This document shows positions 12,534-15,667 of a stretch of DNA of 20,000 bases, in pieces. The position numbers and the translations under genes were made by a program. The notes beneath the pieces are model-generated. The model did no database searches and had not been told where the DNA came from. It was given only the letters and a program-made list of their open reading frames with translations. Every line of letters starts with the position of its first letter. Position 1 is the stretch's first letter. Source of the DNA: an uncultured virus (IMG/VR IMGVR_UViG_3300026549_002477) (lineage: Duplodnaviria > Heunggongvirae > Uroviricota > Caudoviricetes); IMG/VR virus record IMGVR_UViG_3300026549_002477; one strand, written 5' to 3'.

Positions 12534-12561
12534 TTGCAATTTGAGTGATGAGTGATATAAT
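12534..12561 (+). promoter_or_regulatory. Strong SigA-type promoter for the tRNA array
   Basis: TTGCAA (12534-12539), 16-bp spacer, extended -10 TGaTATAAT. A-tract UP-like element upstream. Confidence 0.75.
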
Positions 12562-12702
12562 AAGTCTTGTAAGTGAGAGATACAAAGAAACTGATTAAAG
12601 AGATTGGTGGCAGGGTTTGAGTCCATAGAGGCTCATGAGATTAAAATGTCATTGCCAATAAGTGGAAAGTGTGACATATGGAAGTTTCCTACCAATCTTT
12701 TT

Positions 12703-12776
12703 CGAGAATTAGCTCAGTGGTATAGAGCAGCGGCCTTATAAGCCGTGTGTCCCGAGTTCGAGTCTCGGATTCTCGA
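12703..12776 (+). tRNA. tRNA-Ile(TAT)
   Basis: Acceptor cgagaat/attctcg. Anticodon arm gcggc-ctTATaa-gccgt. T arm ccgag-ttcgagt-ctcgg. Confidence 0.9.
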
Positions 12777-12805
12777 CTTGATGCAGTAGCATCAGCTTTT
12801 AGAAA

Positions 12806-12879
12806 CGGGAGTTGGCGCAATTGGTCAGCGCAAGGTTCTTATAAAGCAGAGGTTGCGGGTTCAAGTCCCGCACTCCCGA
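12806..12879 (+). tRNA. tRNA-Ile(TAT) with a poorly paired anticodon stem (possibly pseudo)
   Basis: Acceptor cgggagt/actcccg, good D and T arms. Anticodon arm aggtt-ctTATaa-agcag has only 3 of 5 pairs. Confidence 0.7.
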
Positions 12880-13056
12880 TTTATTAAGCATAGGAGGAAA
12901 AAGGATGCATCGTTAAATTTAGGGTTCACCAGATAAAATCCTTCCACAAAAATCTGGTCTGTTTGGACATGCGGACTAAAGATGGTCGCGACATCAGAGG
13001 TTTAATTGATAAGATTGATCAACTTATCTAAAACTTGTTCAAGCAGTAAAAAATTT

Positions 13057-13129
13057 GTCTTCGTAGCTCAGATGGTAGAGCACTCGACTTTTAATCGAGG
13101 TGTCGCGAGTTCGATTCTCGTCGGAGACA
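13057..13129 (+). tRNA. tRNA-Lys(TTT)
   Basis: ctcga-ctTTTaa-tcgag, canonical cloverleaf. Confidence 0.93.
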
Positions 13130-13137
13130 TTTAATAT

Positions 13138-13211
13138 GGACTTTTAGCTCAGTTGGTTAGAGCAGACGGCTCATAACCGTCCGGTCTAGGGTTCGAGTCC
13201 CTAAGAGTCCA
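13138..13211 (+). tRNA. tRNA with CAT anticodon, most likely Ile2 (lysidine type)
   Basis: gacgg-ctCATaa-ccgtc. The body (ggacttttagctcagttggttagagcagacgg...) closely resembles Firmicutes tRNA-Ile2 as I recall it, not initiator Met. Confidence 0.85.
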
Positions 13212-13500
13212 CTGAGGCTCTGATTCATGATAAGGAGCCGTAAGACAAAACCTGTCAACTAGCCTAGCGTATTGATACAGTGACTGTGCAATGTTAGCTG
13301 GGTTCCAAAATTATAAGAGTACAGGGTAAGGATTAAATAGTTGTGAACCGTAAGCAGACGTCGGAAAACGAAGCTGAGATATGTTGTCCTGACTAAAACC
13401 AAAATAGGTGAACAAGTCCTTGATTGGGGTACATATGTAAATGCGGATAGGCAAATCACTTACAAGTGCTTTATAGTTGTCAAAGGTCTATAAAGACATT
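13212..13500 (+). ncRNA. Candidate ~290-nt structured ncRNA, family unassigned
   Basis: No credible ORF. Multiple helices: ggctc/gagcc, cctgt/acagg, aaggatt/agtcctt, atatgt/acatat, ctttatag/ctataaag. Confidence 0.5.
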
Positions 13501-13504
13501 ATAT

Positions 13505-13588
13505 GCCGCCATGGCGGAATTGGTATACGCGCAGGACTTAAAATCCTGTTCTGGTAACAGAGTGTGGGTTCGATCCCCACTGGCGGCA
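13505..13588 (+). tRNA. tRNA-Leu(TAA)
   Basis: cagga-ctTAAaa-tcctg, long variable arm. Confidence 0.93.
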
Positions 13589-13610
13589 TTTATGAAAGCA
13601 TAGCTTATAC

Positions 13611-13694
13611 GCCGTTATGCTGGAATTGGTAGACAGGGCAGACTCAAAATCTGCTGATGGAAACATCGTGTGGGTTCAAGTCCCACTAACGGCA
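13611..13694 (+). tRNA. tRNA-Leu(CAA)
   Basis: gcaga-ctCAAaa-tctgc, long variable arm. Confidence 0.93.
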
Positions 13695-13703
13695 CTTTAA
13701 TAT

Positions 13704-13775
13704 AGGGCTATCGCCAAGCGGTAAGGCACAGCACTTTGACTGCTGTATTCGCCAGTTCGAATCTGGCTAGCCCTG
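13704..13775 (+). tRNA. tRNA-Gln(TTG)
   Basis: cagca-ctTTGac-tgctg. Acceptor agggcta/tagccct. Confidence 0.93.
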
Positions 13776-13800
13776 TTTGTAGATGTAAACAATTATATAT

Positions 13801-13914
13801 GGGGCGGTAGCATTGTCCGGGTGAAGAATGAGGTGGTGCCTTTCGTGACCGGAACAGTAGGCGATACATGCAACACCACATGTATATATGCAGGTGCAAA
13901 TCCTGCTCGCTCCA
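13801..13914 (+). ncRNA. tRNA-like RNA A (acceptor stem with G3:U70, T arm, long arm replacing the D arm)
   Basis: ggggcgg/tcgctcc + A. T arm gcagg-tgcaaat-cctgc. Internal ccgg/ccgg arm and atacatg/catgtat hairpin. Confidence 0.7.
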
Positions 13915-13919
13915 CTATT

Positions 13920-13980
13920 GCTGGAATGACGCAACTGATTTGTAATCAGTAGGTTGAGGGTTCGAATCCCTCTTTCAGCT
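13920..13980 (+). pseudogene. D-armless tRNA-Thr(TGT) copy
   Basis: Near copy of 14517-14589 lacking the 12 nt aattggcagcgc. Confidence 0.8.
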
Positions 13981-14039
13981 CTCTGGATAAGGGTGAAAAA
14001 CGGTATAACCATCTTTTGGTTATCCGCCATATCCATAAT

Positions 14040-14109
14040 ACGCTCGTGTCGATGGTCGGCACATGGTCTCCAAAACCATGCTTTTCAGGTTCGATTCCTA
14101 ACGGACGTG
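14040..14109 (+). tRNA. Atypical tRNA-Trp(CCA)-like, copy 1
   Basis: catggt-ctCCAaa-accatg and GGTTCGATTCC. Compressed acceptor/D junction and a T-stem mismatch. Confidence 0.6.
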
Positions 14110-14160
14110 CTTAATTTGGTTTGTTCGTCAACTCACTAAGTGCAAACCAAAAACACATTT

Positions 14161-14258
14161 GCATTCGTAGCTCAATGGCCGATAGCCTGTGGGAAAGCGC
14201 ATCACGTAGAAGCTGAGTAGCAGCTGATGAAATGCAGGTTCGAATCCTGTCGGATGCA
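14161..14258 (+). ncRNA. tRNA-like RNA B (enlarged D loop and anticodon loop)
   Basis: gcattcg/cggatgc + A, TAGCTCAATGG start, T arm gcagg-ttcgaat-cctgt. catca/tgatg closes a 20-nt loop. Confidence 0.7.
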
Positions 14259-14355
14259 TGCGGGTTGCACGCGGGTGTCTGTTTACAGGCGCTCAACGGC
14301 AATACTGTATTATGCAGGGCGCTTTGGCGGATGTACCCCGGCGCCCTGCTCTTTT

Positions 14356-14441
14356 GGAGAGGTATCGAAGCGGTCATAACGAGGCGGTTTTGAAAACCGT
14401 TTGTCCTTCGGGGCACATGGGTTCGAATCCCATCCTCTCCG
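14356..14441 (+). tRNA. tRNA-Ser(TGA)
   Basis: gcggt-ttTGAaa-accgt, long variable arm, G73. Confidence 0.93.
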
Positions 14442-14516
14442 TGTGCGGCACACTCACTCCCCCTTCCCGTAATTATTGTACAGCGTGTGTGCAGAGAAAG
14501 AGCGGACACGCACTTC

Positions 14517-14589
14517 GCTGGAATGGCGCAATTGGCAGCGCAACTGATTTGTAATCAGTAGGTTGTGGGTTCAAGTCCCACTTTCAGCT
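14517..14589 (+). tRNA. tRNA-Thr(TGT)
   Basis: actga-ttTGTaa-tcagt, canonical cloverleaf. Confidence 0.93.
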
Positions 14590-14593
14590 TTAT

Positions 14594-14678
14594 GGACGGG
14601 TATCAAAGTGGTCAAATGAGGCAGACTGTAAATCTGTCGCCCTCCGGGCTTCGCTTGGTTCGAATCCAGCTCCGTCTA
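14594..14678 (+). tRNA. tRNA-Tyr(GTA)
   Basis: gcaga-ctGTAaa-tctgt, long variable arm. One bulged base in the T stem. Confidence 0.85.
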
Positions 14679-14682
14679 TTAT

Positions 14683-14752
14683 GCGTTCGTGTTGATGGTC
14701 AGCACATGGCCTCCAAAATCATGTTTCTCAGGTTTGATTCCTAACGGACGTG
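14683..14752 (+). tRNA. Atypical tRNA-Trp(CCA)-like, copy 2 (more degenerate)
   Basis: Paralogue of 14040-14109 with ctCCAaa loop. T loop is tttgatt. Confidence 0.5.
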
Positions 14753-14760
14753 TTGTATTT

Positions 14761-14832
14761 GGCTCGTTGGTCAAGCGGCTAAGACGTCACCCCTTCACGG
14801 TGGAATCACCGGTTCGACTCCGGTACGAGCTA
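14761..14832 (+). tRNA. tRNA-Glu(TTC) with C at position 33
   Basis: tcacc-ccTTCac-ggtgg. Acceptor ggctcgt/acgagct. Confidence 0.85.
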
Positions 14833-14835
14833 TTC

Positions 14836-14904
14836 GCGGGTATGGTGTAAGTCAGCACAGTCTGGTGTGCAACCGACAAGTAAGGTGTAAGTCCTTTGCC
14901 CGCA
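14836..14904 (+). pseudogene. Degenerate tRNA, anticodon undetermined (loop tgtgcaa)
   Basis: Acceptor gcgggta/tgcccgc, short D arm gtg/cac, bulged anticodon stem, T loop tgtaagt. Confidence 0.55.
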
Positions 14905-15016
14905 GGGAGATTCCGAAGCCAGCTCCGTGTACTAGGTGGCACCTAGTCATCGTCTGGCAGATTATGGGGTACAGCAAAGCCGGCTGTGTCGCGTGGTGCA
15001 AATCCACGGTCTCCCG
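14905..15016 (+). ncRNA. tRNA-like RNA C (same architecture as A)
   Basis: gggagat/gtctccc + G. Long arm gccag..actaggt/acctagt..ctggc. Hairpin tacagc-aaagccg-gctgtg. T arm cgtgg-tgcaaat-ccacg. Confidence 0.7.
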
Positions 15017-15021
15017 CTTCT

Positions 15022-15095
15022 GGAATATTAGCTCAGTTGGTGAGAGCGGCGGCCTTATAAGCCGCGTGTCGGTGGTTCAAGTCCACCATATTCCA
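15022..15095 (+). tRNA. tRNA-Ile(TAT)
   Basis: gcggc-ctTATaa-gccgc. Acceptor ggaatat/atattcc. Confidence 0.92.
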
Positions 15096-15136
15096 TTTGC
15101 GATAGCAGTAATTTGCTTTTCGCAGAGATGCTTCGA

Positions 15137-15208
15137 TGGGGTTTCGCCAAGCGGTAAGGCATGGGATTTTGGTTCCCACATTCGTCGGTTCGAATCCGAC
15201 AACCCCTG
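15137..15208 (+). tRNA. tRNA-Gln(TTG)
   Basis: tggga-ttTTGgt-tccca, Gln-type D arm gccaagcggtaaggc, 1:72 mismatch. Confidence 0.9.
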
Positions 15209-15221
15209 CTCTCTCTTGTTA

Positions 15222-15414
15222 GATTCGGTAGTTAATAATGGTAGACACTGTACACAGACCGGATTGTTTGGAGGAATACCTAGGAGAAAACACCATAATA
15301 AAGACACTCCTACCAACAAACATTTATATTCGGATTTCTTGCCGAGCATCTCCTCGTGAGACTTTGCAAGAAGGCGCTGTGTTAGAAATGCGGGTTCGAA
15401 TCCCGCCCGAATCA
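15222..15414 (+). ncRNA. tRNA-like RNA D (~119-nt structured insertion in place of the anticodon loop)
   Basis: gattcgg/ccgaatc + A. D arm gtt-aataatggta-gac. T arm gcggg-ttcgaat-cccgc. acacag/ctgtgt closes the insert. Confidence 0.75.
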
Positions 15415-15591
15415 CAATGGCCATGACTTCAACTGCGCAGCACAAAGGCGGTGAATGATCGTGTTGTTGGAAGGCGGTTGCGACTGCAAAAAAGGCTAAC
15501 CGCAATTAGTGGTTGAAAAAGATATTTGAATATACTTGAAACGACATGCCTTTCTGGTTGAAAGATTGTCTTTCAGAAAATCGTCTCTGGT

Positions 15592-15631
15592 TGAAAACCG
15601 GATGGATGTCCTCATCTGTTCGGTTCTTTTT
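15592..15631 (+). terminator. Possible terminator at the end of the tRNA array
   Basis: Imperfect stem aaccg-gatg / catc..cggtt followed by a T-run. Confidence 0.4.
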
Positions 15632-15667
15632 ATGCCTGCAAAGAAATCATATTTCCTCAATAAGTGG

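Follow-up and report, generated by a model that had tools for sequence, protein, structure and literature searches.

Four elements in the tRNA gene array of an uncultured tailed phage, here called E1 to E4, are on balance best read as genes for tRNA-shaped small RNAs that do not decode and that are co-transcribed with the phage tRNAs. They are real, and they join the long-known tRNA-like stable RNAs, with precedents in phages T4 and T5; the kind is not new. The array holds four such RNAs of two designs, including a pair of paralogues with compensatory change and one RNA (E1) with an alanine identity. It also offers candidates for what such RNAs might do, namely charging of E1 by alanyl-tRNA synthetase (AlaRS), avoidance of EF-Tu by means of a UGC T loop, and a natural tRNA scaffold in the form of E4. 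In T4 and T5, tRNA-like stable RNAs have been known for decades with no function assigned (PMC3014915).

The 20,000-nt window (the whole stretch of phage DNA that was analysed) was scanned for the frame of a tRNA, defined as seven acceptor pairs (G-U allowed) and, directly on the 3′ side, a 5-bp stem closing the 7-nt loop T[TG]C[AG]A.., at a length of 55-230 nt. On the + strand the scan returns 16 distinct T arms, every one within the array: 11 canonical tRNAs, one tRNA-Thr copy that lacks its D arm, and E1 to E4 (Table 1). Outside the array there is a single T arm, on the - strand and with 2-3 G-U pairs. The 17 T arms observed compare with a mean of 0.09 per 20 kb and a maximum of 1 in dinucleotide shuffles of the window (n = 100, both strands). 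A preliminary description, made from the sequence alone, had named four elements with a 7-bp acceptor and a 5-bp T arm at exact tRNA spacing, and the intervals of the scan coincide exactly with those four.

Table 1 Features of the tRNA array and its immediate surroundings in the window
Feature	Position	Strand	Basis
Promoter-like site 5′ of the array	12534..12561	+	TTGCAA, 16 nt, TATAAT, with TG; consensus match only
Canonical and near-canonical tRNA genes	12703..15209	+	14 ARAGORN calls; E1-E4 sit among them
E1, class A tRNA-shaped RNA, 114 nt	13801..13914	+	Frame scan; E3-derived model; MFE equals constrained fold
tRNA-Thr copy without D arm	13920-13980	+	Rfam match additional to the 14 ARAGORN calls
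E2, class B tRNA-like gene, 98 nt	14161..14258	+	Frame scan; Rfam RF00005
E3, class A paralogue of E1, 112 nt	14905..15016	+	Frame scan; paralogue comparison
E4, class B tRNA-shaped RNA, 193 nt	15222..15414	+	Frame scan; fold z -3.58
Intrinsic-terminator-like hairpin with T run, 3′ of E4	15596..15635	+	Consensus match only

The tRNA genes and all four elements share one strand and form one unit from the promoter-like site to the terminator-like hairpin, the elements being spaced like tRNAs (4-50-nt spacers), and none of the array's genes encodes CCA. This tRNA-like spacing inside one predicted transcription unit supports the conclusion that E1 to E4 are tRNA-derived genes and not chance. Measured against a canonical tRNA, all four have the 7-bp acceptor abutting the 5-bp T arm with its T loop, and in all four the 5-bp anticodon stem with 7-nt loop, U33 and purine 37 is absent. 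The earlier statement that no element combines a normal D arm with a normal anticodon arm also stands, with the refinement that E2 and E4 each retain a D arm and its GG. The forecast that no element would give a full-length Rfam hit held for E1, E3 and E4, which are unmatched by RF00005 up to E 5, and failed for E2, which aligns to this model over its full length with 41.8 bits, against a gathering score of 29, and carries large inserts in the D loop (16 nt) and the anticodon loop (19 nt).

Class A comprises E1 and E3. In both, the D arm is absent and its position is taken by a rod of 53-55 nt (~20 bp) with a conserved tip, and the hairpin at the anticodon position (stems of 7-8 bp) lacks U33 and R37. 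E1 begins GGGGC and has a 7-bp acceptor that includes G3:U70, with discriminator A, followed by U8-A9; its irregular 53-nt rod (10-62) carries the tip hairpin AGGUGGUGCCU, and its second hairpin (64-85) has 7 bp and the 8-nt loop CAACACCA. E3 has the same order of helices, with the tip hairpin AGGUGGCACCU, discriminator G, G3:C70 and a second hairpin of 8 bp with the 7-nt loop AAAGCCG. The T loop is UGCAAAU in both, and within the array a UGC T loop occurs in the E1 and E3 frames only. E3 folds better than its shuffles (z -3.27; 0 of 200 as good) and E1 marginally so (z -1.90; 8 of 200). E1 has no Rfam match and no ARAGORN call.

Over 28 pairs of E1 and E3 matched by hand, 13 are the same, 4 are changed on one side and 11 on both, and none is broken; the T loops are identical. 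When E1 is threaded on the 41 pairs of E3 by an alignment that was itself fitted to the E3 model, pairing extends to 95% of 80 cells, and 17 of the 41 pairs are doubly changed. Slid alignments give 36-42% paired cells and 1-3 double changes, and none of 500 shuffles reaches the observed values. The E3-derived model recovers E1 at its exact ends with 19.9 bits, barely higher than ordinary tRNAs at 19.0 and 18.9 bits. E1 and E3 are paralogues with one elaborate fold in common, maintained across many compensatory changes, which argues against plain decay for that pair. Given that no relatives were found beyond near-identical strains, the conservation of structure is that of a single pair of paralogues. 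A MAFFT alignment of the two was discarded because it shifted the acceptor by one column. In the model alignment, the second hairpin of E3 looks like the anticodon arm of tRNA-Gln from the same array, but with a shorter loop.

Class B comprises E2 and E4. E2 has an acceptor with A3:U70, a D arm with GG, a T arm (UUCGAAU) and a 5-bp anticodon stem that closes a 20-nt loop containing a small hairpin; it folds no better than its shuffles (z -0.97; 29 of 200 as good) and could be a decaying tRNA. In E4, the acceptor (with U3:A70) is followed by U8-A9 and a D arm with GG; the 'anticodon' stem is extended to 9 bp and bears a two-hairpin insert of ~125 nt, and a variable loop AAAU precedes the T arm (UUCGAAU). 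The insert is strongly self-paired, and the fold of E4 is matched by only 1 of 200 shuffles (z -3.58). The well-paired new helices noted in the preliminary description are therefore evident in E3 and E4, marginal in E1 and not seen in E2. In engineered 'tRNA scaffold' RNAs and in viral tRNA-linked small RNAs, the anticodon arm of an intact tRNA body gives way to a cargo RNA, a layout that confers processing and stability. E4 shares this layout and looks like a natural tRNA scaffold with a 125-nt cargo, as a functional analogy only, given that the scaffolds are man-made and the linked RNAs come from animal viruses.

In the reading that we prefer, one polycistronic transcript would yield the phage tRNAs together with E1 to E4, the host RNase P would cut the 5′ ends and RNase Z the 3′ ends, and the CCA-adding enzyme would add CCA. 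These enzymes recognize the acceptor/T minihelix, and such maturation is expected because the coaxial minihelix is kept in all four elements; E2 and E4 additionally retain the D-loop/T-loop elbow. The matured RNAs would persist as stable RNAs incapable of codon pairing, class A as a cloverleaf with a rod for the D arm and UGC for UUC in the T loop, and class B as a tRNA body with extra helices in place of the anticodon arm. G3:U70 is an alanine identity element, and with G3:U70 and A73 E1 is a predicted substrate of AlaRS. The most likely role would be an interaction with host proteins that recognize tRNAs by their top half, with processing or charging enzymes, EF-Tu-independent users of aminoacyl-tRNA and acceptor-end toxins as candidate partners; alternatively, the tRNA body may stabilize and then release an inserted RNA. 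A role as decoys for anticodon nucleases, as proposed earlier, is unlikely given that no anticodon loop is left for recognition. Processing, CCA addition, charging and function are what we infer, with near-identical strains as the only relatives found.

Contigs from RNA libraries span all four elements, unspliced. In one RNA run the contig over E4 (15237-15422) has a depth of 77.5 compared with ~8 in the flanking contigs (~9 times), and E3 has ~10 against a baseline of ~8, that is, no enrichment; as depths of contigs these figures show neither ends nor levels, and carried-over DNA may contribute. Binned depths across the elements were excluded as expression evidence because tRNA contigs of other organisms are mixed in. 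One joint in one RNA run (14907>15028), which would excise E3, has one short side and is interrupted by unknown letters, and was read as the tRNA of another organism.

An unlikely reading, but one to be weighed seriously, is that the elements are functionless relics: one-time tRNA genes whose decoding was destroyed by insertions and deletions and which are tolerated, or kept as spacers that can still be processed, since an unprocessable block in the array would harm the maturation of its neighbours. Decay does occur here, in the Thr copy without a D arm and in a Trp copy (14683-14752) that scores 17.9 bits and carries many strain differences, which makes relics plausible in this array. E2 still scores as a tRNA, with additional parts that show no folding advantage over shuffled sequence, the second hairpin of E3 is close to a tRNA-Gln anticodon arm with a shortened loop, and with no relatives found there is no long-term conservation to cite. 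What speaks against relics is that the 41-pair fold of E1 and E3 survives 17 double changes, that the two have an unusual T loop and a tip hairpin in common, and that the long insert of E4 pairs strongly with itself. The earlier interpretation as mimics instead of decay products is partly supported, with the compensatory changes of E1 and E3 speaking against decay for that pair and E2 possibly a decaying tRNA.

The strain differences listed likewise avoid E2 and E3 but strike the Trp relic. In run X2 (14549-15181), E3 contains none of the ten listed, of which five lie in the 71-nt spacer that precedes it and three in the decayed Trp copy, and over 13705-14350 nine of the ten listed fall in 14259-14298, directly after E2; beyond the differences listed, up to two could fall in E3 and one in E1 or E2. 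Other spacers are likewise free of differences among those listed. The two polymorphisms listed in E1 preserve its fold, one (C13818T) turning a C:G into a U:G pair and the other adding a G to an internal loop. E4 is more variable in one DNA run, which contains an allele with 23 differences and 2 indels across 182 nt. E3 is identical in a metagenome contig (L040), which is uninformative because it is 99.9% identical to the array.

Quite doubtful is the more ambitious view that E1 to E4 are a deliberate toolkit of mimics of the tRNA top half, with class A as sponge or donor and E4 for RNA delivery. Class A, with its UGC loop and no elbow, would then be CCA-tailed, E1 would be alanylated, and both would be invisible to EF-Tu and the ribosome in the manner of the staphylococcal cell-wall tRNAs. 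They would act as sponges for acceptor-end host factors or antiphage toxins, AlaRS or SmpB, or as a private aminoacyl donor, and E4 would deliver a 125-nt regulatory RNA on a full tRNA body. According to PMC7826273, the non-proteogenic tRNA-Gly of Staphylococcus, which serves cell-wall synthesis, has UGC or UGU for UUC in the T loop, so that position 55 cannot become pseudouridine, and it binds EF-Tu and the ribosome poorly while charging is retained. Its likeness to E1 and E3 is one motif only, the UGC triplet; the Staphylococcus molecules are complete tRNAs, have a UCC anticodon and are used by FmhB, FemA and FemB, whereas E1 and E3 have no known user.

For E1 alone, a further and very doubtful reading is a tag-less tmRNA-like RNA that would be charged with alanine, bind SmpB and block or divert ribosome rescue. 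The GGGGC start, G3:U70, A73 and the missing anticodon fit such an RNA, and two permuted tmRNAs also carry the UGCAAAU loop. However, in the place of the D-loop analogue of a tmRNA, which is 12-14 nt long with GG, E1 has no more than U8-A9, and it has an additional hairpin between rod and T arm that is absent in tmRNA; the ARAGORN tmRNA search and the Rfam tmRNA models give no call. Alanine identity is not a feature of the class, given that the paralogue E3 has G3:C70 and discriminator G, and E2, E3 and E4 are all without the G3:U70 of a tmRNA-type acceptor. A precedent in print is the tag-less, TLD-only ssrA of mycobacteriophage DS6A, for which the published description suggests that such a molecule inhibits tmRNA by titrating SmpB. 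Like E1 it is phage-encoded, with an alanine-type acceptor and without an anticodon, but its inner architecture differs and tmRNA detectors miss E1.

Hardly credible is that the elements are tRNA genes with self-splicing or protein-spliced introns that give normal decoders: ARAGORN in intron mode does call E4 a tRNA-Leu(GAG) with a 101-nt intron and E2 a tRNA-Met(CAU) with a 6-nt intron, and single-deletion derivatives are called as tRNA for E2 (169/1392) and E4 (126/1455), but in the E2 and E4 calls stems are mismatched, the 'variable arm' is unpaired, U33 is missing and many different anticodons appear, no derivative is called for E1 (0/1455) or E3 (0/1455), and on inspection any cut of the E2 loop to 7 nt puts A or G at position 33. 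In addition, the inserts measure 20-125 nt and group I introns are longer, no group I intron or ribozyme family matches up to E 5, and among the RNA-run contigs, which are unspliced, no joint excises an insert.

Non-decoding tRNA-shaped RNAs, as we prefer to read E1 to E4, have their closest known counterparts in RNA1 and RNA2 of T5 and RNA C of T4, with which they have architecture in common but not sequence. Like the phage 'tRNA-like stable RNAs', all four lie in a tRNA cluster and on the tRNA strand, have the acceptor/T half and lack an anticodon loop. In the T5 record NC_005859, RNA1 and RNA2 are annotated as misc_RNA, 'tRNA-like stable RNA with unknown functions', and RNA3 as 'putative tRNA-like RNA'. 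RNA1 and RNA2 (125-144 nt) are likewise encoded on the tRNA strand within the tRNA region of the phage. The frame test, applied unchanged, also accepts RNA2, with a 7-bp acceptor, a 5-bp T arm and the loop UUCGAAU over 121 nt; RNA2 has a D-like hairpin and extra helices without an anticodon loop. T5 infects E. coli and belongs to a different phage group, and its RNAs, unlike E1 to E4, have been detected as stable RNAs. RNA C of T4 (species 1 RNA) has a canonical T arm by its 3′ end and is closed by an acceptor-like stem, and the positions of the D and anticodon arms are occupied by two hairpins, the first long and irregular, in the layout of E1 and E3; its acceptor-like stem is imperfect in the frame test, unlike those of E1 to E4. 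RNA D (species 2), like RNA C a small stable RNA from the T4 tRNA cluster, is not tRNA-like when folded, so that T4 has one such RNA whereas this array has four in two classes. PMC3014915 gives the roles of RNA C and RNA D as unknown. A blastn-short comparison of the elements with the T4 and T5 RNAs matches the T arm only (11-18 nt), and a model built on E1 and E3 (R2) gives no hit at either the T4 or the T5 locus. This similarity, confined to a generic T arm, indicates the same kind of RNA and not the same family.

Homologues with compensatory changes, which would bear on the earlier claim of mimicry, were found as the E1/E3 pair within the array, and all searches together gave no homologue of any element beyond near-identical strains. 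Scans of IMG/VR with the DUF975 protein, a 25-base piece of E1, the pattern shared by E1 and E3, and the ClpB-like protein alone found none, and model R2 found no class A member over 85 loci and four whole huge-phage records. With blastn, the array and its 291-nt spacer gave tRNA matches only, or none, among GenBank phages. A metagenome scan gave five hits, four without similarity to the array and the fifth the near-identical L040, and the E1/E3 pattern gave three in GTDB, taken as chance (one inspected is an apparent coding region; none of the three has an Rfam match). An alanine-type pattern gave 35 loci in IMG/VR, of which 27 are one structured RNA family that is not tRNA-like, given that its 'T loop' is base-paired; two are the permuted tmRNAs with the UGCAAAU loop, and three (L039, L021 and L014) are other odd tRNA-like RNAs, unrelated. 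Against Rfam, the elements match no hammerhead, HDV-like, twister or similar ribozyme, no group I intron and no Y RNA; weak matches to the bacterial Y RNA-like family YrlA (RF02553; ~21-22 bits, gathering score 69) fall within ordinary tRNAs and outside the elements. Complementarity of 10-11 nt between the elements and other parts of the window is at chance level.

The source is a probable huge phage (contig ~400 kb) of the bovine gut, with rumen Clostridia as probable hosts. The lineage is rare in the protein searches: for DUF975 the single close relative is one cluster at 95% identity, and for the dUTPase there is the window's own cluster alone, the next protein matches reaching ≤73%, some of them named Clostridia. 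Related huge-phage contigs have over-long tRNA-like frames in arrays 3′ of the same ClpB-like gene, and hence the kind looks widespread and not a coliphage curiosity.

We show that E1-E4, four tRNA-shaped RNA genes, are tRNA-derived, keep an intact acceptor/T half and have no decodable anticodon loop, and that all four lie inside the tRNA array of the phage. The frame test looks for an acceptor stem with all 7 bp paired and, immediately adjacent to it, a 5-bp stem whose 7-nt loop reads T[TG]C[AG]A..; it finds 16 different T arms on the + strand, none of them outside the array, and recovers the acceptor/T frames of E1-E4 at exactly the intervals of the preliminary description, whose observation is thereby confirmed. 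Dinucleotide shuffles of the window (n = 100) contain a mean of 0.09 frames per 20 kb compared with 17 observed, hence the four frames are real and not chance. They are separated from neighbouring tRNAs by 4-50 nt, and no gene of the array encodes CCA. The expectation that Rfam would give no full-length match does not hold for E2, which is called a tRNA (41.8 bits). Beyond the ARAGORN calls, Rfam also finds a D-armless tRNA-Thr copy. The gene called tRNA-Trp(CCA) by ARAGORN is mismatched in its acceptor and T stems, and its D stem, at 6 bp, is of the kind found in selenocysteine tRNAs; its top Rfam match is tRNA-Sec (26.4 bits, under threshold).

Features of the window and of comparison loci from IMG/VR
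Feature	Coordinates	Strand	Description
IF3, DUF2201/VWA protein, AAA ATPase, ClpB/ClpC-like ATPase, DUF975 protein and dUTPase genes		+	Gene block
Promoter-like site	12534-12561		5' bracket of array
tRNA array	12703-15209	+	14 tRNAs (ARAGORN); 3' of gene block, followed by type I restriction-modification M and S genes
tRNA-Ile, UAU anticodon	12703-12777, 12806-12879, 15021-15096		Three genes
Putative discrete RNA	13224-13450		Between tRNA-Met and tRNA-Leu
E1	13801-13914	+	Class A
Thr copy	13920-13980		61-nt copy of tRNA-Thr(UGU), ~12 nt of D arm deleted, anticodon arm intact; 47.9 bits
tRNA-Trp(CCA)	14040-14110	+	ARAGORN call
E2	14161-14258	+	Class B
Spacer past E2	14259-14353		Just 5' of tRNA-Ser
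tRNA-Thr(UGU)	14517-14589		Source of Thr copy
Trp copy	14683-14752		Degenerate, 17.9 bits; rich in strain differences
E3	14905-15016	+	Class A
E4	15222-15414	+	Class B
TGGTTGAAA	15510-15732	+	Five exact copies within 223 nt
Terminator-like hairpin	15596-15625		3' bracket of array
Over-long frame	L069:18456-18658		203 nt
Over-long frame	L066:10515-10648		134 nt
Over-long frame	L047:17359-17493		135 nt
Alanine-type RNA	L039:1501-1634	-	134 nt
Class II tRNA-like gene	L021:1501-1582	-	82 nt

In class A (E1 and E3), an irregular rod of ~53-55 nt begins one or two bases past the acceptor and carries a conserved tip hairpin, AGGUGG-Y-R-CCU, while a second hairpin of 7-8 bp with a 7-8-nt loop occupies the anticodon-arm position, 1-4 nt before the T arm. 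The second-hairpin loops, CAACACCA in E1 and AAAGCCG in E3, have neither U33 nor a purine at 37. E1 has G3:U70 with discriminator A, which together form the alanine identity set, and E3 has G3:C70 with discriminator G. The T loop is UGCAAAU in both, and UGC is exclusive to this pair among the array frames, all others having UUC. One verified precedent is the staphylococcal non-proteogenic tRNA-Gly genes, in which TGC or TGT replaces TTC; the tRNAs are charged, yet their binding to EF-Tu and to the ribosome is poor (PMC7826273). Class B (E2 and E4) has in common U8-A9, a 4-nt variable loop AAAU, a T loop UUCGAAU and an identical 19-nt stretch over the variable loop and T arm. Both also keep a D arm with GG, which refines the otherwise correct statement that none of the four has a normal D arm plus anticodon arm. 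The E4 anticodon stem is lengthened to 9 bp and bears two hairpins, ~125 nt in total; in E2 the D loop is ~16 nt larger and a 5-bp anticodon stem closes a 20-nt loop containing a small hairpin. In line with new helices described as well paired, fold energies are better than in shuffles for E3 (z -3.27) and E4 (z -3.58) and marginally so for E1 (z -1.90), but not for E2 (z -0.97).

The best evidence for structured genes is the E1/E3 paralogue pair, whose fold is shared and compensated. Among 28 hand-matched helix pairs, 13 are unchanged, 4 have one-sided and 11 two-sided changes, and none is broken. Because the alignment was not to be hand-chosen, we based a covariance model solely on E3 and our own structure of it, and searched the whole window unfiltered. 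E1 is the top match after E3, with ends at exactly 13801-13914 (19.9 bits, E ~0.007), and ordinary tRNAs come next at 19.0 and 18.9 bits, hence the model is not very specific. Its alignment with E1, fitted to the model and holding two sequences only, has standard pairs in 95% of 80 cells and both sides changed in 17 of 41 pairs; with partners slid by 1-3 columns, 36-42% are paired with 1-3 double changes, and the observed values are reached by none of 500 shuffles. This pattern looks like selection on a common fold, unlike decay. We consider it unlikely, but still to be taken seriously, that E1-E4 are relics retained, if for anything, as spacers that can be processed.

Strain variation backs structured genes less than the paralogue pair does. 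A contig of DNA run X2 (14549-15181) has 12 differences, and the 10 listed fall in tRNA-Tyr (1), the Trp copy (3), the 71-nt spacer before E3 (5) and tRNA-Ile (1), leaving E3 free among those listed, with up to 2 that may fall in it. The contig 13705-14350 has 11, with 1 of the 10 listed at 14100 and 9 in 14259-14298 just past E2, and up to one may fall in E1 or E2. The listed differences likewise spare some other spacers. Of the E1 variants, C13818T replaces a C:G pair by U:G, and a G insertion sits in an internal loop. The spacer past E2, in which 9 differences thus lie within 40 nt, has at its end a long hairpin rich in G and C, with CUCUUUU after it; this could be an internal terminator, though it is absent from the consensus-scan list.

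By established enzymology, RNase P and RNase Z would excise E1-E4, CCA would then be added and E1 would be alanylated; the products may mimic the top half of tRNAs or serve as a tRNA scaffold. The proposal of processed tRNA mimics rather than decay products is partly supported, among other things by the common compensated fold of E1 and E3, and its processing step we infer. On balance we lean towards E1-E4 being non-decoding RNAs that mature, are stable and have some function of their own, with higher odds for E1, E3 and E4 and lower for E2, and reserve a minor share of probability for explanations not yet thought of.

Such RNAs are a kind already known but unexplained, to which E1-E4 add. In the T5 record, 'tRNA-like stable RNA with unknown functions' is the annotation of RNA1 (144 nt) and RNA2 (125 nt), and 'putative tRNA-like RNA' that of RNA3; four other stable RNAs are annotated as well. 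All lie in the tRNA region, and RNA2 passes the frame test (121 nt). In the T4 record, RNA C and RNA D stand beside tRNA-Arg, and RNA C resembles the class A layout in its canonical T arm, long irregular hairpin, second hairpin and imperfect acceptor-like stem; a review calls the roles of both unknown (PMC3014915). Sequence likeness of the T4 and T5 RNAs to E1-E4 is, however, confined to the T arm; the two sets belong to one kind but are not one family. A second analogue for E1 is the tag-less tmRNA-like RNA of mycobacteriophage DS6A (PMC4131195, PMC11915505), although E1 has another inner layout and is detected as a tmRNA by neither ARAGORN nor the Rfam tmRNA models; E1 as a tmRNA-like decoy, a special case of a stable non-decoding RNA, is quite improbable. 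The literature accessible to our search held no description of E1-E4, and one survey refers in a general way to tRNA-like candidates among viral contigs (PMC10690425).

Two metatranscriptome runs, each of a separate study, contain the array as contigs. Contigs show neither ends, strand nor level, and DNA is possible in RNA libraries; therefore we read this coverage only as 'covered, unspliced'. The contig 13704-14384 of RNA run X7 (depth 24.2) takes in E1 and E2 with their inserts, the E3 contigs are at ~10, and the E4 contig 15237-15422 is at 77.5 compared with 8.2 for contig 12600-13186. No clean removal of an insert is among the joints listed. In intron mode, ARAGORN proposes E4 as tRNA-Leu(GAG) with a 101-nt intron and E2 as tRNA-Met with a 6-nt intron, both with mismatched stems, a long unpaired 'variable arm' and no U33. 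When all single-deletion derivatives of 66-95 nt were generated, tRNAs were called in 0/1455 for E1, 0/1455 for E3, 169/1392 for E2 and 126/1455 for E4, the E2 and E4 calls having many differing anticodons and poor cloverleaves. By inspection, no cut of the E2 loop to 7 nt gives U at position 33, and the elements match no Rfam intron or ribozyme family at E up to 5. On these grounds we reject intron-bearing tRNAs as a very improbable reading.

In one RNA run, 15422 (8 nt past E4, contig depth 77.5) joins back to 13054, 2 nt upstream of tRNA-Lys, and the two sides have no letters in common at the joint. It is absent from the joints listed for two DNA runs; another strain could have the 2.4-kb array segment tandemly duplicated, or the joint could arise at the RNA level. 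A separate contig of ~223-225 nt (13228-13450; 13224-13447) reaches depths of 989 and 274 in two metatranscriptome runs of separate studies, with neighbour contigs at ~8-24, whereas two DNA runs are flat at 11-15 with continuous read-through. It looks like an abundant, discrete RNA of ~225 nt; it has no Rfam match (permissive search included), no GenBank phage match and no tRNA-like frame, and folds no better than shuffles.

IMG/VR, scanned with two of the flanking proteins and with two patterns taken from the elements, gave no relatives of E1-E4, and a metagenome scan gave a single true match, 99.9% identical; three matches in a GTDB scan were taken as chance. In the searches made, relatives were found only as near-identical strains, and protein searches indicate that the phage lineage itself is rare. 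Through an alignment of ClpB-like relatives we fetched 80 IMG/VR loci. In the closest two (46-47% identity) and in several more, a tRNA array lies 3' of the ClpB-like gene and has its own over-long tRNA-like frames (79-226 nt), none like E1-E4 by sequence or by the class A covariance model. The phenomenon therefore recurs in huge phages, and E1-E4 appear lineage-specific as far as seen. Two of the three such frames tabulated resemble class II tRNAs with a long D-loop insert.

An alanine-type pattern run on IMG/VR matched one conserved RNA family of 116-125 nt in 27 of 35 cases (L005, L007, L008, L011-L013, L015-L020, L022-L031, L033, L035-L038). It shows covariation, both sides having changed in 7 of 33 predicted pairs, and is not tRNA-like; no tRNA lies within 1.5 kb of it, and 0 of 4 members tested gave Rfam matches. 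The acceptor of the L039 RNA, which is remote from any tRNA, is a perfect one of the alanine type (G3:U70); this RNA also has a D-like hairpin, a branched arm and the T loop UGCAAAU. The unusual L021 gene, not called by ARAGORN, carries GUA in its anticodon loop and UGC in its T loop.

We read the window as part of a huge phage of rumen Clostridia. Most proteins of the gene block match phage protein families, a 400,213-bp contig carries the window's own dUTPase cluster, the closest ClpB-like relatives (44-49% identical) are on contigs up to 672 kb, and most array-bearing public runs are labelled bovine gut metagenome. The suggested Clostridia host has as its sole basis the nearest named homologues, which are from Lachnospiraceae and Clostridia. 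Between the terminator-like hairpin and the hsdM start, the TGGTTGAAA copies (0.34 expected per window; five reached in 0/200 shuffles) may be a set of binding sites.
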